From assembly GCA_951406725.2 (NCBI GenBank), contig OX597822.1, positions 27,590,001 through 27,654,000 on the forward strand: a stretch of 64,000 bases of DNA. The letters run 5' to 3'. The DNA is from Octopus vulgaris (Eukaryota). A model generated the notes under the pieces. It did not search any database and was not told the origin of the DNA. It saw nothing but the letters and a program-made list of their open reading frames with translations. The position numbers were made by a program, and so were the translations under genes. Positions 7,370 to 64,000 of the stretch are shown piece by piece (the stretch's first letter is position 1; every line of letters starts with the position of its first letter).

Positions 7370-7570
7370 ACCGCGTGTGTACCGTTGGCGATTTTTTCCT
7401 CTGTCTTCCATTCTCTGGATGTTTCCTTCTCCTATATTTCTGACGAAGAGTTCCGCTCGAAACGTTAAACCCCCTTCTTTCCTTCTTTCCTGAGCGTCCA
7501 GTAATACTATATTTGTTCCACGTCCTCGCGTTGTTGTGTTTTCTCTTTGTGTTTTCATGTTTGGATTAAC
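7367..7570 (+). mobile_element. Short non-coding repeat carrying a minimal hammerhead (7437-7469); first ~60 bp repeated at 8561-8625
   Basis: ttt-CTGACGA-a-GAGT-tcc-GCTC-GAAAC-GTT-aaa. Related copies lie at 34135-34340 (+), 35460-35640 (-) and 35790-35920 (-). Confidence 0.65.
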
Positions 7571-7572
7571 TA

Positions 7573-7605
<33 letters not shown>

Positions 7606-8200
7606 GTCTTGCTACTTATGTGCTCTCTCAACGAGATACCAAGCATTGACCTTTCCATGGCTCTTTGAGCCGTTACCAGTCTTTGCTCTTCTCTCTTTGT
7701 GGTAGCCCATGTTTCACTACCATATAACATTGCAGGCAGAACTGCACTGTTAATGAGGTTGGCGCGGGTGGTCCTGTCCAACCTTCCCTTGAGCACATCC
7801 CTTATGCCATTGAACGCCTTCCATCCGGCTCTTACTCTCCGTGAGATCTCCTTTTTGATATCCCGGCACATATTTACTTCCTGTCCAAGATCATCAGAAA
7901 GAAGTCCGGCGTGAGAGATGTCATCGCAGAGTATACACGCAGCAAGTATAGATGGGCTGGACACGTCGCCCGGCTCACCGATAATCGGTGGACGCACGCG
8001 GTTGTCGAGTGGTACCCGCGTGAACGGAAAAGACCACCCGGAAGACCTCCACGACGGTGGAATTACGATTTCAGGAGGACGATTGGGATCACGTGGATGA
8101 GAAAGGCGCGATCCAGAGAGGAGTGGACAGCGTTCTGTGACCAGCGGTGTCAAATGGACGCCTGACGGACTGGTCGGTCAAAGTGATCAAAGTGAAGTGA
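7606..8200 (+). mobile_element. RTE-clade LINE 3' fragment with inverted 5' part (7606-7890 on -, 7890-8200 on +)
   Basis: Motifs LGQEV..LPAMLYGSETW..QRAMERSMLGISL (-) and KYRWAGHVAR..GRPPRRW (+). Tandem tail (TCAAAGTGA)2; (TA)n flanks. Confidence 0.9.
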
Positions 8201-8546: not shown

Positions 8547-9569
8547 GGGTGTGTGTGTGTGTGACCGCGTGTGTACCGTTGGCGATTTTTTCCTCTGTCT
8601 TCCCTTCTCTCGATCTTTCCTTCTCACACACGCACGCACACCCACACAGGCATATATATGTGTGTGTGTGTGTATATGTATGTGTGTATGTTTGAATGTA
8701 TGTATGCCAGACTATATGCTCATCCGCCATAATAGTACATTGAGATTTTCGGCATACTTATCTCTTTGAACATAAATTTCAGTCAGTTTGCATAATGGCA
8801 AGAGGGTTAGAAAAAAAAAGATAAATATGTGTTTAAAGTAAAACAAAATAAAATAATAGATACAATAACACTAATGAGATATTTTTTCAACAAGCTATCT
8901 TGTGTATTAATAGAATTTTTTTTTGGCGTGTGTGTGTGTATGGGGCATGATTGAAATGAATTAAAATGAATATAATCGGCCGTGACGTCAAACGTCTTAT
9001 TCGATGAAATAGTTCAACGTTACTGGCGGCTGATGAAAATGTAATGTTTTTATGACGTAACTGAAGTTGAAGTAATCACAGTTTATATATTTATTTGCTT
9101 ATTTATATATTTCAGTTACTATTCATTGTACGCTCGGTCTAAATCTCGCTTTTATGAAGCATCGCGGTAGATAGGTAAACTCGGTATGTATTTATAGTCG
9201 ATGTCAGATAATTTTTTTTTTATTACAACCCGTTATCTATGAGTTCTCTATGCTGTTGCTTACGCACGAGGTTAAGATTATTTTTTACTATAATGCGTGC
9301 TTGTGTGCGTGTGCGTGTGTTGTGCGTATGTTGTGTGTGTGTATGCGCACGTATATATGAATAACAATATATTTATACAAGCGTACATACATATACATAT
9401 ACACACGCACTCACACACACTCACAAACACACACATATATGTGTGTGTATGTATCTACGTTATCTCTCTCACACGGTCTCTCTCATTTTCTCTTTCTTTC
9501 TTTCTGTCTATCTGTCTCAGTCTGTTTCCTCTTTATCCGTCTCTGTCTGTCTCTGTCTTACTTGCCCTG

Positions 9570-9615
<46 letters not shown>

Positions 9616-9677
9616 TTTGTAAAAAATGAAGTTCGAAAATGCTGCTGTATTATACAATTTTTAATTTTTATATATAC

Positions 9678-9723
9678 ATTATAACATGTTTCAGTTCCTG
9701 AAATGAACCTTATCAAAAAAAGT
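9678..9723 (-). ncRNA. Hammerhead-like motif, U3-A8 core variant, at the PLE 3' end
   Basis: TTGATAA-GGTTC-atttcag-GAACT-GAAAC-at-GTT. Stem III is the palindrome ACATGT; stem I is weak. Confidence 0.55.
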
Positions 9724-10095
9724 TATATATAAAAAGAGACAGCTCATGCCGTCAAACACAAGAAATTCATTTATAATACACAACGGAGTCAGACATCTTA
9801 GAGTTCATGTATAGTTGATATATAGTTCATGTATAGTTGATATATAGTTTGAAGTATATTTCAAAGTGTTCGATGCAGTGGCCCACGGTGGCGATACGTA
9901 TTCAATACAAAAAACAGATCAAAGTGGTGGAAAGCGGTCAATACAGAAGATTGATGTTTCCGAAAGAGCGAGGAATTCAGTTTTACCTTAAGCAATTGTG
10001 ATGACCCATGGTGGAAGTTCGCTGGGTGGTTCTAGTGATTTTTTGTGAAATGCTTGGTTTTATAATGCCTGTTAGGTGGTCAATCTAGCGTAGCG

Positions 10096-10428
10096 TGACG
10101 TCATCAATGTTTTGACCAATCGTTTCGTTAGTTGGCTTTAATCAAGTGGAACGGGACGTCATCATTATTTTGACCAATCGCTGCATTATAACTCCCTCTT
10201 GTTTGTTTCCTGTCTTGACCAGTCGCTTCGTTAGTCAAGCATAGCGGGATGTCATTCAGATTCTGCCCAATCACGACTTATAGCTACATTAGATCTGTCC
10301 CCTGTCTGTACTTGTTAGGTGACTATTCAAGCAGAAAAGGACGTCATCAATATTCTGACTAATGACTGTCCCCTGTTTGTATCCTGTCCATTCTAGCAGA
10401 GCTAGACGTCATCAACTTGTTGACCAAT
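10096..10428 (+). promoter_or_regulatory. Array of CRE/ATF-like GACGTCA + 12 nt + CCAAT modules in the PLE 3' UTR
   Basis: Five modules with identical 12-nt spacing, plus one partial module. Confidence 0.5.
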
Positions 10429-10597
10429 CAGAATCGGGTCTGACCCTTAGCTGTATCGTATGTATCAGGGTCAGATTTGCACGAAAGAATTTTTTTCCCT
10501 TTTTTACTAAGGCATATTTCCGTCAGAGTGAGTGTCTGTTTGAAGTAGCGGCCGTGGTGAAATTTGGTTCTCCTTTTCGGAGGACTTATCTTTTGTT

Positions 10598-11969
10598 TTA
10601 GTATTCCTGGCCCAGGGTGTTTAAACTTGGTCTAAATTTTTTTATGAAATATAGTTCTTTATTTTGGCGTTGTGTGAAGGTTGCGTTGTCACTGAATTTA
10701 TAGAGCGGGTTAGTTGTAAATTTCGGATTTACATTTCCAGCACATCTATCTATGTGTCCGCTGACCGGTATTTTGCGGTAATCAGGGTTTCTAATTTGTG
10801 ATTTATGCACCGCCATCATGTTACGTAAGCTATTTTTTGTATGGCCTATATACTGCCTATTGCAGCCTGCGCATGTTATGACGTAAATTAAGTTTTCTGA
10901 TGCGCAGGTGAAGTTTGTTCTGATGGTGAACTGGTGGCCTTGTTCCAGTATAAATTCTGATCCTTCTTTCAAGATGACACAGATTCCGCAGTTGGGCCTT
11001 CCACATTTTCTAACTGCTGGTTTTGTGGTTGATGTTGAGTGCAGTGTAGCTTGGGTTAAAATCCTTTTCAAGGATTTTGGTTGCCGTTTACTTTTAATGA
11101 TGGTGTGTGTTTCGAGGATCCGGTTCATCTTTGGGTCTCCCTTTAGTAGGGCTGTGCTTTGTAGTATGGTGTTGAAGGCCTCATTGTTGAGTGGGTTGTG
11201 TGTAGAGATGTAGGGAAGGGTTTTTAATTGTTCTTTCTTTTTTGGTTTTGTTTGTCTCAGGTCTTCTATACTTAATTTAAGTACCCGTTGGATTGCACTG
11301 TCTATTAGGGGCTGTGGATAGTTTCTATTTGTGAGTGTGGTTCTAAGTTCCTGGAGACGTGTGTGTCGGGTGTTTGTGTCTGATATTATGGTGCAAATCC
11401 TTCTAGCTAAACAAAAAGGGACATTCATTCTAGTGTGTCGTGGGTGGCATGAATCAAAGGGTAGGTACTGTTTAGAGTCTGTCGGTTTATAGTAGATATC
11501 TGTCTCTATTTTGTTGCCGGTTATCTTAATGAGGATGTCTAAAAATGGTAATTCTTTTTCGTTGTGGTCCATCGTGAATTGTATATTGTCATTTATTCCA
11601 TTTAATAGAATTTTAAATTCCTCAAGTTTCTCTATGCCTTTGTCCCAGATGATGAAACAGTCATCGAGGTATCTTTTCCAGTTGTTATGGATATAGGTGG
11701 CGAAGGTGTTGCCATATTTCTCGAGTGTCATCCGGTATAGTATTTTCTCGAGGTATCCCATCACTAGGTTGGCAAAAGATGGTGCAGTACGCGTGCCCAT
11801 CGCTGTTCCCGATCTTTGCCTGTAGAAATCATTGTCAAAAATAAAATAAATGTTCTCTAAAATGAATCTAAGTCCTTCTATTATAAGGTCTTTGTTTATG
11901 CGAGTTGGGAGTTCAAAGGGGTAGTTATTCAGCCAGAAGGTGATTGCTTCTATTCCTAGGTTGTGAGTG
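10598..11969 (-). CDS. Penelope-like reverse transcriptase + Zn linker + GIY-YIG endonuclease (N-terminus missing)
   Basis: [56 protein letters not shown]. Uninterrupted frame; the listed ORF start lies in microsatellite. Confidence 0.92.
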
Positions 11970-11977
11970 ATATATAC

Positions 11978-12021
<44 letters not shown>

Positions 12022-12162
12022 GTATGTATATGTATATGTATATGTATATATGTATATATATATATATACATACATATATATGTGTGTATGTATGTATATA
12101 TGTATATATATATATATATAAATATATAAATATATACCTATATATATATATATCATATATAA

Positions 12163-12225
<63 letters not shown>

Positions 12226-12442
12226 TCAATTTAGGGTAGCAAAAAAATTCAATAGAAATTTATCGCTACCAACGGCCTAGTGGAAAAGAGAAAATAGTCA
12301 ACGACTAAGTATATAAATATAACAATTTAGGAATGACCTAACAGGTCATTCGTCCACCAGAAAAAGAGCAGCCATAACTCACACCGCCAAGTAGTAGTAA
12401 TTCAGAAATTAGGTGAAAATTCAAAAACATTTACCCTAATTC

Positions 12443-12545
12443 ATCTTTTAGACGTTGCAACGTTTCTGTGTCATTAATGATTAAATTAGCTTAATTAAAT
12501 TAAATTAAGCTAATCTACCATAGGTTACACTTCATCAGTAAAAAC
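12443..12545 (-). ncRNA. Type I hammerhead ribozyme (left-arm copy)
   Basis: Reverse complement of the motif at 13024-13123. Confidence 0.75.
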
Positions 12546-13023
12546 CTGGGAGAGACAAATATACACGAGGCGTCTGTATCGATGCCTAGGGAATATCTGT
12601 CTTAAAATTTTCAAGACTGACGTATTCGCGCCAAACTTATCAGCAGTAAATATAAACTGCCGATTCAATCTCAGAATTATTCAGAAAATTATCAATTAGT
12701 CAATTTAGGTAGCAAAAAAATTCAATAGAAATTTATCGCTACCAACGGCCTAGTATAACAATATAAATTGTTATATTTATATACTTAGTCGTTGACTATT
12801 TTCTCTTTTCCACTAGGCCGTTGGTAGCGATAAATTTCTATTGAATTTTTTTGCTACCCTAAATTGACTAATTGATAATTTTCTGAATAATTCTGAGATT
12901 GAATCGGCAGTTTATATTTACTGCTGATAAGTTTGGCGCGAATACGTCAGTCTTGAAAATTTTAAGACAGATATTCCCTAGGCATCGATACAGACGCCTC
13001 GTGTATATTTGTCTCTCCCAGGT

Positions 13024-13123
13024 TTTTTACTGATGAAGTGTAACCTATGGTAGATTAGCTTAATTTAATTTAATTAAGCTAATTTAATCATTAATGACAC
13101 AGAAACGTTGCAACGTCTAAAAG
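13024..13123 (+). ncRNA. Type I hammerhead ribozyme with extended stem II
   Basis: ttttta-CTGATGA-a-GTGT...ACAC-a-GAAAC-gttgcaac-GTC-taaaag. Stem III is the palindrome ACGTTGCAACGT; predicted cleavage after 13117. Confidence 0.8.
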
Positions 13124-13244
13124 ATGAATTAGGGTAAATGTTTTTGAATTTTCACCTAATTTCTGAATTACTACTACTTGGCGGTGTGAGTTATGGCTGC
13201 TCTTTCTGGTGGACGAATGACCTGTTAGGGTCATTCCTAAATTG

Positions 13245-13337
<93 letters not shown>

Positions 13338-14928
13338 TGTATAATATTCAGAAAATAATTTTTGGCTATAAACAACCATAGGATTGGAGTCGTTAAAATC
13401 ATGTGTTCTGATCTCAACACTCCTATCTATGATGAAAGTGTTATATTCCTGATGAACTCTCAGATTTTGGTGCCTCTATTTTTTTCATCGATACTGTGTT
13501 TTGTGATATTGGTTGCTACCCTTAGCATGGAACGACCTCGTCATGATCTGCTTATCGGCTACATAGTTTTATACATGCACATAAATTGACTCATAATACT
13601 AATATAAATTTCAATATGAATATAAATATATCGTTTTGCTAATAAATTTGGTACCTTGGGTAACTGAAGTGTAAAATGTGGTGTGTATTTTAAGTATAGA
13701 AACACTTTCATGCACACACCAATACATATACATACACAAGCACACACACATATATAAATAGACCGAAGTGAACGTACGCCGCTATATTTTATATATAAAA
13801 ATACAAAATTGGGACAAGAACGCAAAACATCCAGACATTTGGGTGAAACGAAAAAAGGAAAACAAAATATCCAGAAAGACGATACAAGGAAAAGAAGGAA
13901 GGATCATTCGGAGTTTTCTATCCTCAGTCGAGTTCCAGATTATCTTTGCAATTGCGGCTGGTTATACTCGAGATTGCTCTAATCTGGTCAGCCCCAAGGA
14001 AAAATATGCTAAGAGCATATATGTATATACATATACACACACACAAACACACGCACACACACACACACTCACACATACACACACACATGCGTATATATGG
14101 TAGTGCGCCTATAATCGATTTTGCACCGTTTTTTTCTCTTCAGTTACTTAAAAGGCAAAATTTAAATATGATTTCTCTACTCCATTAGTTCACAAAGTGC
14201 CATTTGCAAACTATTGTTATTTAGTTATATATAAAAGAAATATATATATATAAAACAGGAGTAATAAAATCAATAAGTATGAAAAGCACTTGCTTTGATT
14301 CCTTTTCTCATCACGAACTGTAAATCTGAGGATATTTATAGAATATAAAGAACTATGTGCCCAGTGTATTTTTGAAATGGGGCGATTGTGTCACGTTTGA
14401 TATTTACTCATGTGCCTGTGAACGACTGTCTGTGTAGCGAATATGTACGTGGTATCCCAATTAAAAATTACATTCATATCACACTCTATACCTTTCAGAA
14501 AATAAACTGCATTGGACAATACAAATCATGGTATGCATATTAACAGGATGTTTACACATGGAACTCCACTGTAGCATCCGTTTGCTTGATCACAGCAATA
14601 ATACCAGAAATAAGACCATCAAGAAGGGTAGTAAGAACATGACCACAAACAAAAACGGTATCATGCAAAGAAGTATATTTAGGCAAAAATAAAAATCGAG
14701 TGGAGACGTTTAAATGATGGTAGTCTCTCGTAGTCCTAGAAATAAGGTTCTGCTATTTCTTGCTCAATCCACGCAAAATAATTTGATCATAGTGGGCAAG
14801 AATTTCTGTTGTACCTTATTTCACTCCCTCCACCCTTCAGGTGTCGAACTGACTGTAGAGCTACGGGAGTTGTAGTGTTTGTTTTTTCTCAAGAACACAA
14901 TACACCATCCGGTAAAGAATTGAAACTA

Positions 14929-17175: not shown

Positions 17176-17622
17176 ATATGCTACAGATATCTGCCCAGTT
17201 TCCGTTTACCGAATATTACAAAGTATTGTTGAACCCGACGGTGTGGAAGGAGACACTTGTTGAAAGTGCCATAGCAGATATTGAATTCCTACTACACAGT
17301 GGTTATCTGGATTCCTTAACTGCATCGCCATCCCTGCGTATTCTTCCGATTTTTGAGAATATGCTTGCTGATGTTGCTTGAAATGATGCACGCGTTTGAA
17401 ATGTAATGGATCTTGAAAATGATAAATTCAAATTTAATTTATAGGAAAATACTTGGATTCAAGTAGAAACCCTATAATCGTACTCTAGGACAAACTAGAA
17501 GAGTAATTGGGGTAAACCTAGCGAAAAATATTATTACATTATACTAGGAAGTAAATGTATTCTGACTGATATATTAACTCTACTCTAGAGAATTCATACT
17601 TAAATTAATCAGATGAAATAAT

Positions 17623-23725: not shown

Positions 23726-24810
23726 GGTTTGGACAAAATAATAGAAACACCAACCATCATAGCATCATAATTTTGAAATATCTATAAAACCATCCAGAGC
23801 TTGCTCATTTTTATGTTTTTTAATTTATTGTTAGTGTTGCCTAATATGTTTTGCTAAAATTGCTATTTCTTTTCAGATATCATCAGAAAAAAGGTAATCA
23901 GAATTCATTAAAATGACAGATCTATCGAACATTCAAAGAGGTCAAGTTGTCGGTGCCCGTATGCAGGCGCTAGCGTAACGAAAATAGCCGAACTGTTTGG
24001 TTTATCAAGAAGTACTGTCTCGAAAGTAATGACAACCTTTGAGAAAGAGGGAAAAAATTCCCCATCGAAATATAACTCCGGAAGAAAACCAAAACTTTCA
24101 GATAGGGACCGTCGGACTCTTACGCGAATTGTTAGAACGGATCACAAAAGTAGAGCTCTCAAAATTACTGCAGAGCTTAATGAGCAAAATGTTATTTTCT
24201 CGGAGGAGTCATACCTTACCTTATTTCTGACCACCAGCCGAGTATACGTGTGGAGACAGCCAAAAGAAGCATTTGACCCAGACTGCCATCTTCCAGCTGT
24301 TAAACATGCAGGAGGATCTGTGATGATATGGGGAAGGGCTATATCTTGGAAATTTGCCGGCACAATGGTTTCCCTTCATGAAAGAATTAATGGCCAAGAC
24401 TATTTAAGCATGTTATCTCATCAAGTACATCCTATAGTTCCGGAAGGAAACGCAGTCTTTCAGAATGATAATTCACCAATTCACACAGCAAAAGTTGTTA
24501 TTGAATGGTACGAGGAATATTGTAGTGAAGTTGAACATCTTATCTGGCCACCACAATCCCCAGATCTCATTTATGGAGCATTTTAGAAAAAGAAGTAAGG
24601 AGTCGATATCCTCCACCATAATCACTTCAAGAGGTGGTGACTGTTTTACATGAAGAATGGACAAAAATTCCTTTGGAAACAATTCAAACTTTGTACGAGT
24701 CCATACCTCGTAGAATTCAAGCTTTAATTACTGCCATAGCAGTCCTACCCCATATTAAAATTAATTTGTTTGAAATTTTAAGGTGTTTCCATTATTTTGT
24801 CCAACTCCTC
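23723..24810 (+). mobile_element. Tc1-like DNA transposon, decayed and internally deleted
   Basis: TIRs CAGGGTTTGGACAAAATAATAGAAACACC / GGTGTTTCCATTATTTTGTCCAACTCCTC, TA flanks. Motifs SGRKPKLSDRDRR, VKHAGGSVMIWG, FQNDNSPIH, WPPQSPDL. Confidence 0.9.
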
Positions 24811-26629
24811 TATATATTGCATGTTACAATTTGTAATGCGGTCAAGAAATCTACTGCAGTACATCAAACTGTGCCATAACGATGGTATAAGGGTTTCGTA
24901 TACTGTTGAGAGTAATTCTATGTTGTCCTTGAGCAGAGCAACATATTTTAATGTAACAGTGTATATTTTACATGAACTTTTGTAGTTAAAGTATTTTTGA
25001 TTCCGTATTGATGCATCAGGTAACATTGCCATAAATATGAGATAAGGTGAAAGTAAATGTGTGACAGTGTGAAATGTGGGAAAACGTGAGTGCGACATTT
25101 GAGGTAGAATATCATTCATTGTTTCCTAGCGATATACATATAATTATGGATTTCATTATCAAAGTAGATCTAGTTATGAATAACAGCTGCTTCTCTTTTT
25201 GAATTTCTTCCTTCAGTTCCGTTCTTCATAAACATCAGACGTGAGTAAGGTTAATCTAACTTTGAAAGCATGTGCACTCATCTCTGTAAACTCACAACTA
25301 TGAATGTCAGCAAAATATAATTTCTCGTGCTCTATTACGCTGCCTTCCTGCTGTTGCTATGTAATTTATGAGTTTCACTAGTTGCATTTATTATCTCTAC
25401 CACAGTTTCAGCGCGTTGTGGAAATCCAGCATAAGCGTCCATGTTGTATTTGTTGCTTCGTGGTGGTAGTCGAATGTATCATACATATTTCGCAAGATTA
25501 CTATCTTTTAAACCATAGGCTGGAATTTAATTAGCATGGTTATGGGAAGAACCGAAAAAGATGATTCAGCTTACACTGGAGAAAAACGTTTTGCTGATAC
25601 TTTTGCATGTATTACATGTTATTAACAATCGACGTTTAGATCTTGATCTTGTCTTTAAAGGAGAAAAGTGTCAATTAAATGATGTCAATTGATTATTCCT
25701 TTTTGAAGAAAGCGAATATTCTTGGACACTATATATTAGAATTCTATCTTAAAATGCATAGATGCGCAGAAGCAATTTCTCTCTAAAAATACAGAACAAA
25801 TATCGCTTCAGGGATGTGCTTTTTACGTTATGCTTCTTTCCTTACTAAAAAGGAATCGCTATTTTATCTCTTCAGTCTTGAGTCTTATTTTCTACGACGT
25901 ATTAAGGATGCTTATATTGTCAAGCCACAATAAAAAATAAAGATAGATCTAACTTGATAGTTTGGCAGTAATAGATTGGAAATAAATTTATTTCGTGCTT
26001 TATTTTATTATTTGCTTTTATGTGTATTTAAAAGGTAATATTTTAGAATAGAAAACAAATATAGTGAACATAGAAACTACATCGCTGGTGAAATAAGATT
26101 CTAATATTACATCGTTGGTTTGGTAGTAATCTATTGAATAGCTACAAGGCCTATATGGGATAGAAAAGCGAAATGAAATGATATTTATGAGCTTCCTGAG
26201 GTTTTTACCATTTAAACCGAGGTGCAACAATTGGAATTAAATTATTGATTTCGGTTCAACAAGATAAGCTTCTTGGTCTATAGTTTCAATTGTTTTATGG
26301 TAACGTCCACCTGGGAGAAAGTGCGTATTTATCGACTGAATGTGAAAATTATTTTCGTCTTCATCAACATACTGTCCAGTAGAAACCACAATATAAGCTT
26401 TTTCGGAGAAAGAAATATGTTTTGCAGTTTCGCTATGCACATATACATATACATACATACATACGGTCATACATACATCCATACTTACACATTTACATAT
26501 ATGCATACATTCATACATGCATAATACACATATACATACATACATACATGCATAGACACACACATACATACATAGTTACATAGATACATACATACATACA
26601 TATAGCAACAAAAATAAATATATAAATGC

Positions 26630-37720: not shown

Positions 37721-37779
37721 TGGAGTATAGCTATATATTCACTTTGACGACTAGCGAAACGTCCATATGTATATATATA

Positions 37780-37812
<33 letters not shown>

Positions 37813-37853
37813 CTTTACGGTGATCGTCAAAGTGAATATATAGCTATAGTCCA
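37721..37853. repeat. 30-bp inverted repeat (1 mismatch) enclosing (TA)n, with hammerhead-like TTGACGA..GAAACGTC
   Basis: Arms at 37721-37750 and 37824-37853. Confidence 0.8.
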
Positions 37854-38532: not shown

Positions 38533-38950
38533 TTAAGTTAAGTTAATTTTTTGGCTTAAAAAGCAAAAATCAAGGCCATGTAGGGGCACATGGAGTTACG
38601 TACAGGGAGGATGTTCATGCAAAGAGTTCAGGCCATTTCTGGTCAAGAGAGACTTTGAACCGATCGGTCGTCGGCATCTTCACTATCTCGTCCGGCAGCT
38701 TATTCCACGGATCCGCAACCTGGACGAAGAAAGCCCCTCTCCTTCGATTAAGATGAAATCGTCGCAGATAGAGCTTTTCGGAGTGACCCCGCAGCCGACG
38801 CTCTGGAGCAGAAGTGAAGAACAGCTCTTTCGAGAGGTTACACCTTTCGCTTATGATGTTGTGAGCAAGAATGAGATCACCACGGCGTCGTCGTTTTTCT
38901 AGAGAATAAAGGTCGAGCGTCTTCAGCCTTTCTTCGTAAGACAAATGCTT
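38533..38950 (-). mobile_element. CR1-clade LINE 3' fragment
   Basis: SYEERLKTLDLYSLEKRRRRGDLI..RGHSEKL..WNKLP; (TAACT)n tail. Confidence 0.88.
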
Positions 38951-39555
38951 GAGACCATACGTTTATTTATTCTACTTATTCTCAAAGTTATACAAACCGG
39001 CACACGTATGCACCAACATCTACTCGCTGACGCACACTCGCGCTTTTTCACTCACGCCTTTTCCTCAGCACCAGCTACTTTCGCTTTGCTCCACAACACG
39101 GTTTCTCAACTTCCTCCACCCGACTCTTTAGATATCTAACACCCCCCACACACACGCGCTCATTCACACTCATTTCGACATCGAAAGTCGTGGCATCCAC
39201 ACTTCGTTGTCCTATTCATCTCATTCTTTTACCTCTCTTCCTTTCCTTCTTCTGCCATTTTGCTTCTACAATGTGACTGTACTGATTTTTCTAATCCACA
39301 CATTCGGACTCATCTCTTTTCGACAAGTTTTCCCAATTGCCCTCCTGGAGACTTTCACCATCTTTAGGTTCCCACCTTAGGGCGGTGGTCGTCCTGTGAG
39401 TAAATCTAGAAGACAAAACGCAGGAGGAAGCACATCTTGTGCATACAAACACGTGTGTGTCTGTGTATGCGTGTGTTGTGCATGCGTGTGTTTGTGTATG
39501 TGTTTGTATATATGTATATTTGAATATATACACATGTGTATGTGCGTGAGCGTAT

Positions 39556-43162: not shown

Positions 43163-43544
43163 GGCCATCAAATATGAAAAATTACCGTTATATAAAGGGA
43201 AATTAATGTGTTATAATTCCGCTACTTGTATAAATTAAGATTAAAAGTTCATAGTAAACACGTAAACATGGCTACTCATACGCTCACATGTGCGCTCGAG
43301 GGCCCACGTGCGTACTTATACGTCACTATGAAAACGTACACATATTCATTCGTATTTTTCGCCAAATGTATACACATATATGTACAAACTCATACACACA
43401 CACACGCGTACCCTAAAAGTTCATACATATGTCTATATACGCACACAGTTCCCTCTATTTACATAATATTGAGGTCTCTTTCTTTCTTTTGTTATTTTAC
43501 CGTTTTTACCAATATATATATATATTCATATTTATATATATATA

Positions 43545-44080
43545 CAGGGTGTCCCCAAAAAATGTATACATAGACTGCAACAGTCTGTCATGCCAAGCAT
43601 TAGAGAGGACTTTGAACAGGAAGAGTTTTATTTCCAGCAAGATGGGGCACCTCTACACTACCATCGCGATGTTAGATCCTTTCTTGATGGGATCTTGCCA
43701 AACAGGTGGATTGGACGGAGAGATTTTGTCGAATACCCTCCACGTTCACCAGACCTCACACCACTAGACTTCTTTTTATGGGGATACCTAAAGGACAAAG
43801 TCTACGCACAGAAACCTGCAACTGTCGTTCAATTGAGGGCAACCATTGAACATGAATGTACGAATATCCCAAGGGAATTGTTCCATGATGTGTGCCATTC
43901 CATCGCTTCGCGTTGTCAGCAGTGTCTGGAGCAGAACGGACATCAGTTTGAGAACATGCGATAACAAGACAACAGAATGATATTTGTAAATTCTTTTACA
44001 TGTTGAAAATTATTCGAGTTATAATAAACCCCAAATTTACAATTATTTAAGGTGTGTATACATTTTTTGAGGACACCCTG
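43545..44080 (+). mobile_element. Deleted Tc1/mariner element of the DD41D (rosa/VS) group
   Basis: TIRs CAGGGTGTCC.CAAAAAATGTATACA, TA flanks. FQQDGAP..SPDLTPLDFFLWG with 41 residues between the last two catalytic Asp. Confidence 0.88.
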
Positions 44081-45385: not shown

Positions 45386-45685
45386 ACAATTGCAGCGTGG
45401 AAGGTGTTTATAAGCCATTTAAGAAACACACAAAAGCCGTTCGATTCATTTCAACATTTAAGTTTAATTTGTCAAGATATTTTCGTCGCTTAGAGACCGC
45501 GACCTGTTCACTGACAAAAATCCGTGCTGCATCTCAGTGATGCAGCACGGATTTTTGTCAGTGAACAGGTCGCGGATTTTAGCAACGAAAATATTTTGAC
45601 AAATTAAACTTAAATGTTGAAGTGAATCGAACGGCTTTTGTGTGTTTCTTAAATGGCTTATAAACACCTTCCACGCTGCAATTGT
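45386..45685. repeat. ~300-bp foldback palindrome (148/147-bp arms, 5-nt loop) with a hammerhead variant in each arm
   Basis: Arms at 45386-45533 and 45539-45685. The ORF track shows MAYKHLPRCNC on both strands. Confidence 0.92.
45554..45603 (+). ncRNA. Type I hammerhead, G3-C8 compensatory core variant (mirror copy 45468-45518 on -)
   Basis: TTTGTCA-GTGAACA-g-GTCGC-loop-GC(G/A)AC-GAAA-ata-TTT-TGACAAA. Confidence 0.65.
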
Positions 45686-46113: not shown

Positions 46114-49100
46114 TTATGTGGTGTCATCCATTCGCAACTTTCGTGCTACATCCTTCCATCGTTCTTCATACACTGTCTTAGTCAGGCATTTTCTCTCCAG
46201 CCCTATCTTCCTTTTCAGGTGAAAGATGAAGTAATTCATCAAACCAGGGCCGGATATGAACTTGCCTGACCGTAAACCTTTCATTCTCGTCTTCCATATC
46301 ACCTCTTTCGCAATTGCTACCACAACGAGAAAACAATTCTTACCTTCTTTCGCGAGGAAATCTGGTGGGTCAATTTTTGTAATAGACTCAGTCGACAGCT
46401 GTACTCTTCGTGTGCTTGACAACAGCTGTTCGGCATAAACCCACACCTCAGACACGACCGAACAATGAACAATAGCGTGCGGGACGGTTTCCCTATCCCG
46501 CTCGCATCTTGGACATATCGGACTGTCTTGGCCACCGTGCCTTGCGAGTTTATCCCGAACAGGTAGAGCTCCTCTGTAGCATTGCCATGCCAGAGACTTC
46601 TGGAAGTTGTCCAGTGTCTTCGGCTCGAACGTACGTCGGAACAGACTGGCCAGCTGATTATCGTCGAGACCTAGGGTTTCCCCCAAGGTATCTTCACATT
46701 CCGCCTCTACCAACCCTCTATAGAAGAATGTGGTGGAACCCCCACCGCAGGCGTTGCCCGAGCGATGGAATAGCAGGAGAGCCTTGCGACACTCCGTGTA
46801 CCATGTGCCTAGTTTCGATCTACGATTCAGCCAGGTTTCCCATCCACCGAAACTAGTGAACTTGGGAAACATCAGTTTTGCTAGCGGAGACCACACCCGT
46901 TCACCATCCAGGTAGAGCCACAGATGTCTTAACCTCAGCGCATGTCTGCGCATCATCAGCCAAGGCATCCCTAGCCCACCCTTTAACGGTTGTTGACAGC
47001 AAGTAGAGCGTTTCACAAGTGGTTTCCGCCCTTCCACAAGAAGTAGAAGAGCTGTCTTTCCAACTTGATCAACCACGAATCAGGGCAAGGAACGACGGAA
47101 AGGCGGTAGGTGATAACCGATGCGATAAACACATTGGCCACCTCCGCCCTCCCTTTCAGGGATAGCCACCGCCAAGACCAGGTCTTGGTTACTGCAGCCA
47201 CCCTGCTCGATACCTCGCCCCAATTCTTCTCTATTTGGAGGTCTGGACCGAACCAAACCCCTAGCAACTTAATCGGACCCTCCGTCCAACGTCCCACGAC
47301 GCTGTCAGGAGGCATCGACTTGCCTCTCCAGGTGCCGAGTTGCAAGCCGACTGACTTTTCGCGATTAACTTTTGCTCCTGTCACCGTCTCGTAAACCTCT
47401 ATGGCCTTGCCTACTTTACGTAGGTGATCCATTTCGGTTACGATGATGGTGATGTCATCCGCGTACGCTGACACCGATTTTCCACTACCTGGCTGTCTCG
47501 GGATGCCGCTCAGTTTTCGCAGTAATGGCTCAAGAGCCATCACGTACAAAAGCGGGGAGAGCGGACACCCTTGACGAACCGAGCGCTTGATGTTGAACGG
47601 CTTCGACAAGAAGCCGTTCACCCGAACTACCGAGTCGATGTTGTCGTAAATTTGGATAATCCACCTGAGGAAGCCAAGGCCCAGCCCGAACTGTGCCAGG
47701 GCAGATACCAGGTAGCGATGGTCGACCCTATCGAACGCTTTAGATTGGTCTAAATGGACCAGTGCCCCACCCTTGCCAGAATCACTATTAAACCCCTCTA
47801 TAGTGTACCGCATAAGATGGAGATTATCCTGAATGGTTCTGCCGGGAACGGCACATGTCTGTGCCTCCCCGATCAGACCATCCGCGACACGCGCCAATCT
47901 TTTCGATAACACTTTGGCCAAAATCTTCAACTCTGTGTTTAGCAGAGTGATGGGCCTGAAATTATCAATGCACTCCCCCTTGCTCGGGCCCTTTCTGACG
48001 AGTGTCACTACTCCCCGGCGCACAGATCTGGGTATGAACCCGTTCTGCTGCCAGTTCACATAGACCTCCACCTGTAGGTGCCCGAACAAGTCTGGCATAC
48101 TCTTATATAACTCATAGGGTAGACCATCTAAACCCGGTGCCTTGCCCGCGCCGCAGTCCGCCATCGCCTCAACCACCTCCCCAGGCGTGATTGGCCCTTC
48201 ACAGCCCTCCGCATCTCGCCCCGATAAGCGCGGCAGCCGTCGAGGAGGTCCGTAAAGGCCCTCCTCCTATCCAGTCCGCCGCACTCACCGAAAAGCTGAG
48301 CGAAGTGCTCCTGAAAGGCCTCACACATCTCCTCGGGCTCGTTTATCAACTCACCTTGTTGGTTCGTTATAGATCGAATCGTGGCGTCGTTACCACGCTG
48401 AGCTTCCACCACTAGGGCCCATCTCACGGCGTTGATTCCTTCACAACCCATTTCGCGGATCCTAGCCCTGACAATGCAGCCCATGTGTTTGGCCTCGAGG
48501 TGCTGGTTTAACGCCAGTCTCTTGGCCGCCACCTGAACCGCAGAGCCAGTTTTCAAGGCTTCCTCTAATTCCTTAACTAGATTAGATTCCCTCCTAGCCT
48601 CTCTAGCCACTAATCCTATGCTATATCTAATTGACTCGAATTTGATGGCTCGCTTGAGGGCATACCACCATTTGTTATTAATGATGGCACCAGATAGCGC
48701 CCTCTGAATTATAGTCCTAATCCGGTCTCTGTACTCCTTAATCGCCAAAAGGGACGTATTAAGTTTCCAGTAACCGGAGCCTCTATTTTTAACCTTATCT
48801 ATGTCAAGCTTACAGGTGACCATTTTATGATCACTGTAGCTGACCAGGTAAAACTGTGGACACTTAGCTATTTTTCTGTCTACTTTTCTAATTAGTATCC
48901 TATCTATATATGACCTGGAAGATCCGTCGCTGTTTGACCATGTCCACAATAGAGCGTTCGGAAATTCTAACCTATAAGGATCTGCTAGCTCAAAGCGGCT
49001 TAGCAGTTCCAGGAAGCCAATGTTACCTTTTCTATCTGGACGCAAGCCAACACAATCTACATCCGCTTTGCAAATTGTGTTAAAGTCTCCTAGCACAACT

Positions 49101-49508
49101 AATGAATGCGAAGTACCAAGAAAGTTTTCCAGTTCTCGAAAATAATCACTTTGCCCTTTTTGGTTGGGTGCGTAAATTGCAACCAGTCTGATAACTTTAC
49201 CGTTACTGAACGTCAAATCCATGACGACCAGCCTATCTTCTGGTTCTGAAAAAATTAACTTTTTCTCAAAAACCCGGTTTCTTTTTAATAGGACCAACAC
49301 CCCACCTCCGCCTGTAGGACTGGCCGGAGAGAAAAAAACTCTCGTAGCCGTCAAACAGCGGGAGTAGACCTCTTGGCCCCTCTAACCGGGTTTCTGTAGC
49401 AACAATAACATCCAAATTACGTGACCTGATATCATTAAGGAAGCGACCTTGCTTCCAGCTTGATCCCAGGCCGCGCACATTTAAACAACCAACATAAATG
49501 CAATCCAT
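46114..49508 (-). pseudogene. ORF2: APE endonuclease + RT + CCHC finger, three frameshifts
   Basis: CLNVRGL, ATET, LGDFN, YIDR, SDH; KAPGLDGLP, FRPITLLNTELKI, DQSKAFD, VRQGCPLSP, YADD; CPRC..HAIVHC. Confidence 0.93.
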
Positions 49509-49516
49509 AGCTTACC

Positions 49517-50783
49517 TTATATCAGTGGTTCGACTTGTTCGACTTGTTCGACTTGTTTTTCGTCGTCTTCTTCACTTTTATTTTTTTCCTTGGCTCGTGG
49601 GGGAGTCCGACGCAGGCCCTCGTATAAATATGGAGATATGTCCAATCTCAGAGGGCCCACGTCGTGAAAGAATTCGGATTTTATCCGTCCGTAATCCTTC
49701 CGGCCTATTCTATAAACAATACAGTCTTTTGTTTTTTTCATTTTTTCCACTTTGGCCATGGCTGCCAAAACATTAACTAGCCTGTTGTTGGTAGCCTTAA
49801 TGGCCATAAATGTATTAGTCGCTTCTTTCCTCTTTTTTTGGCTCTCTTTCTGAGGGGTGGTTTCTGTTTTCCGGTTTTTTTTTGGTAATTTTTGACCACC
49901 CATCCTCTTTTTCTTTTTCTTCGCCACTTGTTGTTTCTTCTACCTCTTTGGTTTCTGTAGTTTCTGGTGTTTTCTCTTCTGTTTTCTCTTCTGTTTTTTC
50001 TTTTTCCGGCGGTGCTACTTCCTGCGGTTTAGGTTGACACTCCGCTCTTACGTGCCCCTTTTTACCGCAGCCGAAGCACCTCGGCTTTCTGCCCTCCACA
50101 AACACTAGCACCCTCTCCACCTCGCTGAGCCTCAATATCTCCGGTATTTCTTCTAACGTTTGGACCTCCGCCTGAATCGCCATTGTGATACATTGGCCTT
50201 GCCAAAACCCCTCCTCCTCTACTGTAGCCTGTCCTCCAGGCCCAACATCACTGCCGCCACCAGGCATGTGGCGTCCGCTTCTGGCGGAATATTTTTCATT
50301 AATAGTTTTGAGGTCCTTCTGCCTCTGTACAGGGGGAGAAGGACTATATTCTCCGCTTTTTGAGGTTCGGTTGATAGCTTCTTGGCTATCTCCTCAGTCC
50401 TGAACCTCACCTCAATTGTTCCAAACTTTCTGCCACGGTTTATATACGTAATGTCTTTCCTTATTGTCTTCAGACAATCCTCTATCTTTTTTTCCTCCAC
50501 TCTTTGAATGCTTTTCATCGTTGTATTGTATGTCTTGTAGATAATCCTTTTTCTTTCTACTTCTTCTTTCTTTCTGACGTCTGATTCCACTGCTATTTCA
50601 TTTCCTTCCTTTTTCAAAAGTGCTTCATACTTTTCTAGGTTGCTCTTATCTGTGTTGATTTATTTTTGTTTTTTTCCTGCAACTTCTGCGAACTTCTTCG
50701 CTGGGGCCTGTTCTTTTTCCGGCGTCACCACCGGTGAACTTTCTTCACCTGATACAGGTGAATATGAGATAGGAGTCTCCATC
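49517..50783 (-). pseudogene. ORF1: gag-like protein with CCHC zinc knuckle, frameshifted
   Basis: RCFGCGKKGHVRAEC followed by a charged low-complexity region; pieces in successive frames upstream of ORF2. Confidence 0.8.
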
Positions 50784-60619: not shown

Positions 60620-60670
<51 letters not shown>

Positions 60671-60782
60671 ATTTAGGAATGGTCATTTTGCCAGTTTAGC
60701 CAATAAAAACACACGCACTATATATTTGGTGTTACTTTGCTTCAGTGTTATTTATTTTTTACATTAATCTTAATCTTATTTC

Positions 60783-60827
60783 GGCCAGAGTTCTTTCGTC
60801 ACACACCTGTGACCGCATCAGTGGTCC
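60783..60827 (-). ncRNA. Type I hammerhead-like motif (A9C variant) downstream of PLE 2
   Basis: ggaCCA-CTGATGC-g-GTCAC-aggtgt-GTGAC-GAAA-g-aa-CTC-TGGcc. Confidence 0.65.
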
Positions 60828-61181
60828 TTTGTTTTCTTCTTACTTATTTGTGTCTCTCCTTACTAACCGTCAGCCATTTCGTATTTCTATTGTATGTCTT
60901 CATTTGCGCATGCTTATATCTCTATGTGCGTTTATGTTTATTTAGTGTGTGTATGTGGGGCATGCCTGTAATATTTGTATCTTCTGTTTATATATGTTCA
61001 TGTAATTTGTAATTTTATATGTTCATGTAATTTGTATTTTGTATTTTTTGTTGTTGTTGTTTTTGTTTATTCTTATTTTGTTCATGTATTTACATCCACC
61101 CATTATTAACATTACATATGCTTGTATGTATGTATGTATGTATAACAACAATACTAGTAATAATAATAATAACTTGAATCG

Positions 61182-61367: not shown

Positions 61368-61429
61368 TTTATTTCTATTAGTTTATTTATTTATCTGTGT
61401 ATTTATTATGTTTTCAGGATCCTCTATCG

Positions 61430-62791
61430 TCATATGTTCTGGTGTGTGTTAGTGCTCCATTCTAGTTTTCTATTCAGGCTAGGTTTATTTTCTATTATTT
61501 GTGTAGCTTCTGTAATTTGTCTAATTGTTGTATCTGATCTATGTGTGGATAATATTTTAATTTCTATGTTATTGATTGATCCCCCGTGTTCTTGTTCGGC
61601 GTGTTGGTACAGAATCGATGAGCTTTTACCTTTCTTGAGTTGTCTCCAATGCTCATTTACCCGCTCTCCTATGCTTCTTGCCGTTTCCCCTAAATATGTC
61701 GTTGTCTTGTTACTGCATCGTCCCTCTATACATCTTATACTATAGACTACATTTCTGGCTTTACAGTTTGTTTGTGGGCTAAATCTACATATAGTACAGT
61801 ACTTATCCGTACAGGGGGTTCTACTAAAAGAATAGGTTCTACCAATTATAGATTTGATAGGGTTGCCTGGCTTTTCAACAACCTTAATTCTTAGCTTAAG
61901 TTTGTCTAGGGTCCTTCTAAAGCGATACGCCAGTTCACCTCCAAGGGTGGTGTCAACGAACATGACACTCTGGTATTTATGGCTATCATACCAAGAGTTG
62001 GCCTTCCCTATTTTCTGTTTTGTCCTTTCTATAGTGTTCCATGACTTGTTCCTATAGAGTGGGCAAATACCATTCCTATCATTACATAATATATTATCAA
62101 ATTTCTTAATGGTTCCTTTGTATACTCTGATCCTTTCTTTATGGCTGTAACCTGAGAACTGCATGCGGTGAATGAAATATTGTATGTGTCTCTTTAACTC
62201 TGTAGGTTCGCACATGCATGACACATTTCTCATTATTCTGACGAGGTCTGCCATCAAAATATTGAATTTGGCATTGTCCGCAATGGCTGAGTTCCGGTGG
62301 ATCAAGTATTTTGAGGCCATAGGTTTGGCATAGTATGAATGAAGGATTTGGGTTTTATTATTCACAATTTCTAGCCAGAGTTCGGTGTCTAGTACTGGTA
62401 GTTTATGGTTGGGGTATTTAGTGGGGTAGTCTATTGTGACCTTAATACTCTGGTGGATGGAGTTAGCTATTTGCTGGATGCTCTCCATAGTATTAGTTTC
62501 TATTACTATATCAACATTACTCTCTTGTGGGGGTGCCTTTACCACTATGTTGATATCATCAACATAGCGAGAGTACATGTTTACGAGTATGGAGTTCTGT
62601 GTTAGGCGTTCTTTAAGCCTTCTGTCCCACCATACCATGAAAAGGTTGGCCACATCACCAGCGATACTAACGCCGATGGCTGCCCCCTCGTCCTGGGCAT
62701 ATATTTTATTATTAAACTTAAACGTGTGGCCCTTTAGGGTAATTCTTATACTAGCTCCTAGTGCATGTGCGATCATTATCTGTTTCAACAC
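61430..62791 (-). CDS. Penelope-like RT + GIY-YIG (Nematis-like), 5'-truncated
   Basis: [60 protein letters not shown]. Clade assignment is by eye. Confidence 0.9.
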
Positions 62792-62832
62792 ACGACTTCA
62801 CATAAAAAATCTTGCACAACAAATATTTAAAC

Positions 62833-63060: not shown

Positions 63061-63608
63061 CTTCACGTTTGTGTGAATAAATCGTTTTTCTTTGGATATA
63101 TGTGTGTATACATATGTATATCTGTATGTGTGTACATCTGTATGTATTCTGCATATTCATGTGTTTGCATGTCCGTGTTTGTGTATTGTTATGCATGTGT
63201 GTGTGTCCGTGTGTTTGCATGTGTATGCACCTCTGTCTCCTTCTGTGTGCATGTCTGTATGTGTGTGTGTTTTGCAACTATGTACCACGTTTGTATGTAT
63301 GGATGTGCATCTCCATATGTGTGCACACGTGTCTCCGTATGTGTCATTGTGTGAAATAAAGTGTGTGTGTATATATATGGTCATGTGCTTCAGTCTCCAT
63401 TTGCGTATGTGTGCTTGTCTGTTCATATAACCTATGTACCTATCCGTCTCTATGTTGATCTGTTTATTTTCATATCCGTATGCTTACATACTTATGCATA
63501 TACACATATATACTCCCCACACACACATACATACATCTCTCTACATAACAACACACTAACTATTTTACTCTACCTGCGTAAACTTTGGGTATATGGGTAT
63601 GATATCTA

Positions 63609-64000
63609 CTATGTATATTTCCTATTTAATATTGGGGAAGTTTCTTTTATAAGTACGTACTCCCGTATTTGTCTGAGTGTTGTGTCTTTTGGGTGCTTGG
63701 ATAAAATGCGGATGTCAAGTTGACCCATGTTGCCTCCATGGTGGTCTTTGGAATGCTGGTAGAGTATGGCGGACTGTTTTTTGTCGTCATATTGTCTCAG
63801 AGCTTCATTTAGTCGTTCCCTAATGTTCCTAGATGTCTCCCCTATGTATGTCATGTTCATGTCTTTACAAGCAACTTCTATGCATTTTATGCTGTAAACT
63901 ACATTTCGAGTTCTACAGTTAATGCCACGGCTAATCCTACATACCGTGTAGTTATCATTGGTGCATATGGTATTCTCAAAGGGGTACGTCCTACATAGTT
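63609..64000 (-). CDS. C-terminal GIY-YIG part of a third Penelope-like element (runs off the window)
   Basis: NCRTRNVVYSIKC..YIGETSRNIRERLNE..RQIRE..PILNRK; homologous to the 61430 ORF. Confidence 0.88.
   Translation of the reverse strand, partial: LCRTYPFENTICTNDNYTVCRISRGINCRTRNVVYSIKCIEVACKDMNMTYIGETSRNIRERLNEALRQYDDKKQSAILYQHSKDHHGGNMGQLDIRILSKHPKDTTLRQIREYVLIKETSPILNRKYT

Follow-up and report, generated by a model that had tools for sequence, protein, structure and literature searches.

The locus analysed here has its closest described counterparts in animal non-LTR retrozymes and in endonuclease-bearing Penelope-like elements (PLEs); what we say of both refers to the parts of the cited sources covered here. 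For retrozymes, circular templates together with PLE enzymes were proposed in 2020 by Cervera and de la Pena (PMC7229834), and Li, Clavereau and Pollet argued in 2026 that animal retrozymes are non-autonomous PLE sequences (bioRxiv 10.64898/2026.07.22.740005). The latter preprint adds co-occurrence and homology to pseudo-LTRs (pLTRs), and says that the mechanism is still to be worked out. For PLEs, repeats placed head to head with a palindrome at their junction are said to be the commonest arrangement, and in the rotifer element Pen2a the direct pLTR shares a 15-bp overlap with an inverted pLTR that is 37 bp shorter (PMC3846280). The purified protein of a lizard PLE nicks AT-rich DNA, extends both target strands and starts inside its RNA without homology; in vitro, its insertion is independent of hammerhead cutting (PMC11167929). 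Non-coding parasites of PLEs are known in algae (PMC8557442).

In a 64,000-nt stretch of Octopus vulgaris DNA (the window, the whole stretch analysed) we find two head-to-head copies of a 474-nt unit that shares features with both groups. Like animal non-LTR retrozymes (PMC7229834; 2026 preprint), the unit is short, non-coding and 34% GC, carries a single type I hammerhead, is highly self-paired, forms head-to-tail joints, and occurs in many copies in a genome that also holds PLEs. Its length exceeds the 170–400 nt of the circles tested in PMC7229834 and falls within the 51–972 bp consensus range of the preprint. Unlike in those retrozymes, the two copies lie head to head around a PLE-type hinge and stem II is long, with an unpaired A on either side, while cleavage and circle are predictions. 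Like endonuclease-bearing PLEs (PMC3846280, PMC8557442, PMC11167929, PMC4209133), the locus has a head-to-head inverted 5' arm and a junction palindrome, a shortening of the inverted arm of ~36–37 nt (a skip of 36 nt here), arms whose 3' ends differ (a tail), a target that is AT-rich or (TA)n, and a hammerhead with a palindrome in stem III and one additional base following A9. Unlike those elements the unit has no RT-endonuclease ORF, and its extra 3' piece is, at this one locus, 96 nt of the unit's own start as against the 30–40-nt ORF-derived tail of PLEs. The Chlamys non-autonomous elements such as MRC1 (PMC8557442) are algal, and their group is reported to lack canonical hammerheads; unlike MRC1, the unit resembles another element at its 3' end by an 11-mer only.

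The word "inverted" is absent from the main text of PMC7229834 and occurs in the 2026 preprint, in the portions covered, only within one reference title. In the mainly open literature covered we found no report of the 474-nt family or of an inverted retrozyme insertion; supplements such as figure S9 of PMC7229834 and the preprint's tables may bear on this. Retrozymes and their link to PLEs are thus already published, and the addition made here is a retrozyme that bears the inversion footprint of PLEs and whose two arms each measure about one lap. The preliminary description had proposed a retrozyme-like element inserted with PLE geometry. That proposal, still a reading of the locus, has gained a variable family, a head-to-tail joint and a hinge like those of published PLE insertions (PMC3846280), and we consider the unit very probably to be a non-coding family mobilised by PLEs.

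Anatomy of the inverted locus

The locus and its immediate surroundings comprise the following features:

11976–12220, no strand: left target, a compound (TA)n/(TG) microsatellite
12221–12754, minus strand: left arm, 534 nt or 1.13 units, running from unit position 49 to 474 and then on to 109; its 3' end joins the left (TA)n
12221–12281, minus strand: terminal redundancy of the left arm, equal to 12695–12754 (61 nt, one gap), a second pass over unit positions 49–109
12754–12775, no strand: hinge, a 9-bp stem (12754–12762 with 12767–12775) and a 4-nt loop; inverted copy of unit positions 4–12
12764–13250, plus strand: right arm, the 474-nt unit (12764–13237) and a 13-nt repeat of its start, 1.03 units in all; its 3' end merges into the right (AT)n
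13215–13242, plus strand: 3'-terminal 9-bp hairpin (13215–13236) and the 11-mer CATTCCTAAAT (13232–13242)
13251–13337, no strand: right target, an (AT)n then (AG)n microsatellite, within which a target-site duplication is not definable

The original picture of a 1-kb palindrome built from a circularly permuted 474-bp unit, with arms that are inverted and differently phased copies, is borne out. The left arm, put at about 1.1 units with a redundancy of 12221–12281 to 12695–12754, was computed at 1.13 units with 61 nt of redundancy and one gap. The right arm had been given as one unit ending at 13248; it is indeed a single inverted unit at another phase, but it ends at 13250 and adds a 13-nt repeat (12764–12776 equals 13238–13250), the final 4–5 nt of which blend with the (AT)n. 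The two arms point outward from the centre and their outer ends lie in microsatellite, both of them adjoining (TA)n as in a PLE-type insertion into a (TA)n or AT-rich target. They end at different phases, with 3' ends at unit position 13 (right) and 109 (left). Both exceed one unit, and the predicted hammerhead cut site is crossed intact in each.

When the left arm was aligned end-to-end with the reverse complement of the doubled right unit (12764–13237, 474 nt), no substitution and four homopolymer indels were seen, in agreement with the claim that the arms differ solely in homopolymer lengths. Three of these four differences are absent from the family variants listed and are therefore probably read errors. 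The site at 12821 is T in all three of its window copies; this allele is a ~19% minority in the DNA run X1 and has frequency 0 in X9, so both arms derive from one variant. The insertion is likely to be very young, a recent single event. The unit is non-coding (GC 0.34), as had been said: the longest stop-free stretch of the circular 474-nt unit, in any frame, is 55 codons. Rolling-circle translation is ruled out by the 9–19 stops that each lap contains in all six frames.

At the hinge, described before as a small hairpin at 12754–12774, the hairpin is present with a 9-bp stem and a 4-nt loop, and its extent is 12754–12775. The strand folds back for 9 bp, after which a jump with a single base in common leaves out positions 13–48 (36 nt) and reaches unit position 49. 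By analogy, this arrangement resembles a published natural head-to-head junction of a PLE (PMC3846280). The 36-nt skip, the palindrome in stem III and an adjoining PLE ORF (the last two are treated below) are additions to the earlier description.

Hammerhead and fold of the unit

The following elements make up the hammerhead of the unit and its mirror copy:

13022–13125, plus strand: type I hammerhead with an 8-bp stem I, core CUGAUGA at 13030, GAAA at 13102, a 4-bp stem III and a predicted cut after 13117
13051–13086, plus strand: AU-rich hairpin extending stem II, ~15 bp with one G-U; mirror at 12482–12517
13105–13116, plus strand: stem III, a perfect 12-nt palindrome
12443–12545, minus strand: mirror hammerhead, core at 12538, predicted cut after 12451; its stem I is shorter by one U

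Each arm had been credited with a canonical CTGATGA/GAAAC/GTC hammerhead. The core bases are indeed intact, but the motif departs from the canonical form in the extra As beside stem II, and Rfam gave no match in the window at gathering score. With the threshold relaxed to E<=10 over 9000–14000, Rfam likewise reported no hammerhead, returning only microsatellite-driven and chance matches. A relaxed hammerhead descriptor found no match in 5000 dinucleotide shuffles of the unit, and a looser scan of the whole window returned the two arms and one weak match at 17353. The base of stem II is 4 bp long and is flanked by one unpaired A on each side (13037 and 13101); the hairpin said to extend it by 14 AT-rich base pairs is present at 13051–13086 and has ~15 bp, one of them G-U. 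Assuming that hammerhead position numbering (A9, G10.1, G12) can be applied to the unit, one unpaired A follows A9 and a second precedes G12. An extra base between A9 and G10.1, together with a palindromic stem III, is reported for PLE hammerheads (PMC4209133), while for the extra unpaired A before G12 we found no parallel in the portions of the PLE-hammerhead literature covered.

The energy of stem III is -17.9 kcal/mol as a two-molecule duplex versus -0.9 as a hairpin, and animal hammerheads with a palindromic stem III have been described as acting as dimers (PMC4209133). The constrained hammerhead fold lies within 0.7 kcal/mol of the local minimum, and the hammerhead is absent from the predicted lowest-energy circle fold of the unit. 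The unit hammerhead is therefore best described, on modelled structures, as a variant form with intact core bases and predicted cleavage. In the 2026 preprint, eight of nine frog retrozyme dimers showed no cleavage in vitro (bioRxiv 10.64898/2026.07.22.740005, portions covered). The 20-nt hammerhead pattern had no matches in viral contigs or in prokaryote genomes, and its three metagenome matches are chance (20–24 nt, with no further likeness).

As a whole the unit folds much better than its shuffled versions, both as a linear molecule (z -7.1, with none of 100 shuffles as good) and as a circle (z -5.9, 64% paired, 40 shuffles). The antisense strand likewise folds well (z -4.4). Inside the unit, an E2F-like TTTGGCGC site is followed by a CRE half-site at 12932–12950 on the plus strand, where the motif names E2F and CRE are our assumption, and a TATA-like box lies on the minus strand near 12775–12781. 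From such motifs, an internal promoter within the unit is possible.

Family members and neighbouring PLEs

The unit is found well beyond the window. Among 24 listed sequencing runs, 20 (from eight studies with four organism labels, one of which may be the source) hold at least half of the unit's words. No RNA run was listed among the holders, which counts neither way. The DNA run X1 of organism A placed 803 contigs on the unit and the DNA run X9 of organism B placed 807, where summed contig depth is not a copy number; together with 15 listed substitution sites, these contigs indicate that the unit belongs to a real, variable family with many copies in two or more organisms. The hammerhead, which makes up 21% of the unit, contains none of these sites (P ~0.03). 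At one listed loose end in X9, core position 7 is varied and the remaining core bases are kept, and at another listed loose end an A-U pair of the 3' hairpin is changed to G-C, a compensatory change. In X1, X2 and X9, the fraction of contigs continuing into unlike sequence is 0.

Run X2, which is RNA by guess only, gave six contigs, all within the unit, that close into a 474-nt loop with no loose ends. Its joint 13237 to 12764 has a depth of 14.5 versus 12.8 for the body, though a contig-graph loop of this kind is equally produced by a circle, by tandem DNA or by uncut multimer RNA. X2 carries T at 13163, an allele at ~3% in X1 and 0 in X9, a pattern more in line with one specific source copy than with the family average. 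In X1 DNA a head-to-tail variant joint, 13248 to 12779, is present at a low depth of 62.5. The exact joint 13237 to 12764 was called only in X2, not in X1 or X9, so that tandem DNA arrays of the unit are barely shown; the arm lengths of 1.03 and 1.13 units do mean that head-to-tail joints exist in the window DNA, where no full dimer of the unit was seen.

PLE-related features near the locus and at the far end of the window are these:

10598–11975, minus strand: neighbouring PLE, Neptune-like and 5'-truncated, with the C-terminal half of the RT, a CxxxxCxxC finger and GIY-YIG; it ends at the same microsatellite
60660–61180, minus strand: repeat end with CATTCCTAAAT, abutting (AT)n, downstream of the PLE-like ORF at 61427–62797
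61427–62797 and 63555–63998, minus strand: two fragments of a second, distant PLE-like group, with a YVDD RT motif and a C-terminal endonuclease-like part

The neighbouring PLE as a whole spans 9600–11975 (minus strand) and has an open RT/GIY-YIG frame of 455 codons, the named relatives of which are mostly molluscan (Argonauta, 50%; bivalves, 43–45%). Its 3' region holds, at 10070–10430, a motif, present five times, that includes GACGTCATCA and CCAAT-like boxes; these box names are ours, and we take the motif to be promoter-like. Full-length relatives of the second group are ~1000–1180 aa long, with a best identity of 40–46% over most of the length. Neither PLE 3' region in the window could be aligned with the unit above the level of shuffles (an equal or higher score was reached by 190 and 47 of 200 shuffles). 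A role of the unit as pLTR of the neighbouring PLE is therefore rejected, since the 3' region of that PLE is unrelated to it, and the two share only their target. The unit itself has no RT/GIY-YIG ORF and so is not an autonomous PLE. When 127 and then 150 PLE-related proteins were compared with the doubled unit (948 nt) by tblastn, only short chance matches appeared (best E 0.16 and 0.015). Three proteins, P0042, P0047 and P0082, are PLE proteins that databases assign to bivalve symbionts (Candidatus Thiodiazotropha and a Solemya symbiont); they are probably host DNA in symbiont assemblies.

The 3' end of the unit shares the 11-mer CATTCCTAAAT with the other repeat end, at 60671–60681, which also abuts (AT)n; the chance expectation of this match, calculated post hoc, is 0.0015. 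That repeat end is possibly the 3' end of the PLE at 61.4–62.8 kb, and the shared 11-mer may name the helper PLE of the unit. Because the wider alignment is at shuffle level, we treat the match as a lead and nothing further. The idea that the 60.7-kb repeat end is the start of the PLE ORF was unsupported by the N-termini of relatives. Two decayed hammerhead-like stretches, at 9670–9750 and 60770–60850 (motif near 60820), were rejected as they fold no better than shuffles (98 and 33 of 200).

Several other elements were seen in the window. A second near-perfect palindrome, at 45386–45685 (300 bp, 94%), lies between (TA)n runs with an extra 58 nt on one side; it has the look of a head-to-head pair plus tail, gave no match in the hammerhead scan and is possibly another PLE-type insertion. 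A short inverted repeat around a central (TA)n, at 37721–37853 (84%), is perhaps a small foldback element. On the minus strand, 46117–50659 holds a near-complete L1/Tx1-like LINE with an ORF1-like part, AP endonuclease, RT and a C-terminal zinc-finger region, in several frames and at ~50% GC. Transposon-like fragments lie at 7566–8177, 23912–24880, 43473–43961 and 38618–38962, which by their motifs we take to be an RTE-type LINE, two Tc1/mariner transposases and the end of a CR1/L2-type LINE.

Routes to an inverted pair

We consider it reasonably probable that the locus is a head-to-head pair of 474-nt non-LTR retrozymes, made in one recent insertion into (TA)n by a PLE enzyme at the end of a cycle of hammerhead cleavage, circle formation and two-strand priming. 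In such a cycle, head-to-tail source copies would be transcribed and the hammerhead, which may act as a dimer held by the palindromic stem III, would cut after the equivalent of position 13117. The monomer would be closed into a structured circle, and a PLE reverse transcriptase-endonuclease would nick both (TA)n strands. Two cDNAs would be primed, at unit positions ~13 and ~109, each would run one lap plus 13 or 61 nt, and their free ends would be joined through the 9-bp fold-back and a one-base jump that skips 36 nt. The anatomy, the family, the head-to-tail joint and the lack of an ORF are observed, and we infer the transcription, cleavage and closure of the unit, the part played by a PLE enzyme and the two-strand priming.

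The lengths of the arms limit the choice of template. Since both exceed one unit and cross an intact cut site, a cut linear monomer is excluded, and if the arms were reverse-transcribed the template was either a circle or an uncut multimer. Both arms stop within 61 nt past one lap, which would be seen in ~1.7% of cases if 5' stops were random in phase (a post hoc figure from two points). This favours a circle. Furthermore, the lizard PLE extends both strands and starts internally, which provides a direct route to outward arms that end in the target and thus favours two-strand priming. Given a PLE-mobilised non-coding family, a circular template is slightly favoured. In its fullest form this reading has a PLE reverse transcriptase, primed on the two target strands, travel once round a covalently closed ribozyme RNA to make each arm; we put it forward only tentatively, as possible rather than probable.

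The alternative that survives best keeps the same family and the PLE enzyme and dispenses with the circle: the hammerhead would be slow or bypassed, and the template would be a linear uncut multimer from a tandem array or a self-primed antisense RNA. Unprocessed RNA is the main in vitro template of the lizard PLE (PMC11167929), and Arkhipova et al. attribute palindromic head-to-head junctions to self-priming on an antisense template (PMC3846280; both sources in the parts covered). A head-to-tail variant is present in X1 DNA, and the X2 data fit multimers as well as they fit circles. The stops of the arms 13 and 61 nt past one lap are left unexplained by a multimer unless its 5' end is fixed, as it would be by a transcription start near unit position 1, which would likewise give arms of about one unit. 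Published animal retrozymes, moreover, accumulate largely as circles (PMC7229834, in the parts covered). Overall, we regard this alternative as rather unlikely.

It is improbable that a coding PLE has the unit as its pLTR, with the locus being two solo pLTRs in inverted arrangement. This idea draws on two features in common with PLE hammerheads, an additional base separating A9 from G10.1 and the palindrome of stem III (PMC4209133), on Schistosoma hammerheads that occur in opposite-strand pairs 100–700 bp apart (PMC4209133), on the homology of frog retrozymes to pLTRs (bioRxiv 10.64898/2026.07.22.740005), all in the portions covered, and on 64 further loose contig ends beyond those listed. The left arm, however, continues past its 3' end into the unit's own start and not into ORF sequence, which means that the template ran unit after unit. 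In addition, the unit has no ORF longer than 55 codons, PLE-related proteins gave only short chance matches to it, and none of its contigs in X1, X2 and X9 runs on into unlike sequence.

Finally, we asked whether a real repeat might have been turned into a palindrome by a foldback read or by mis-joined copies between microsatellites. Contig placement in four runs (X1, X2, X9 and X24) covered 12735–13248, with rare variants being dropped by contigs, and depth was 0 over 12735–12752, left of the hinge, in all four, among them X24, a raw RNA run from another organism (E) with no reads on the whole stretch. Zero depth at the hinge is equally expected if a young insertion is missing from the individuals sequenced, and the window's own individual may not be among them. 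The simple foldback chimera raised in the preliminary description is unlikely because the two flanks do not mirror each other, the phases at which the arms end differ (13 and 109) and the exact mirror symmetry of the hinge breaks after 9 bp. An assembly or long-read artefact is thus very improbable, even with microsatellites on both sides that favour mis-joins and arms identical save for homopolymer lengths, three of the four differences being no listed family variant and so pointing to uncorrected read errors, given the unlike flanks and phases and a mirror of 9 bp that gives way to a skip of 36 nt, much as at the published PLE junction.

On the question of how animal retrozymes get back into DNA, the inverted copy described here gives structural evidence for the link to PLEs. 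Arm lengths of about one lap supply a countable test between circle and multimer, which a young, high-copy family permits to be used genome-wide, and in PLE assays the family's natural 474-nt RNA, whose hammerhead is unusual, could serve as template. If the insertion had a linear template, the locus would be one more retrozyme family. Circle-templated retrotransposition has been proposed for retrozymes and PLEs, with no demonstration found in the parts of the literature covered; if our preferred reading of a circular template is true, the locus would be its direct genomic footprint.
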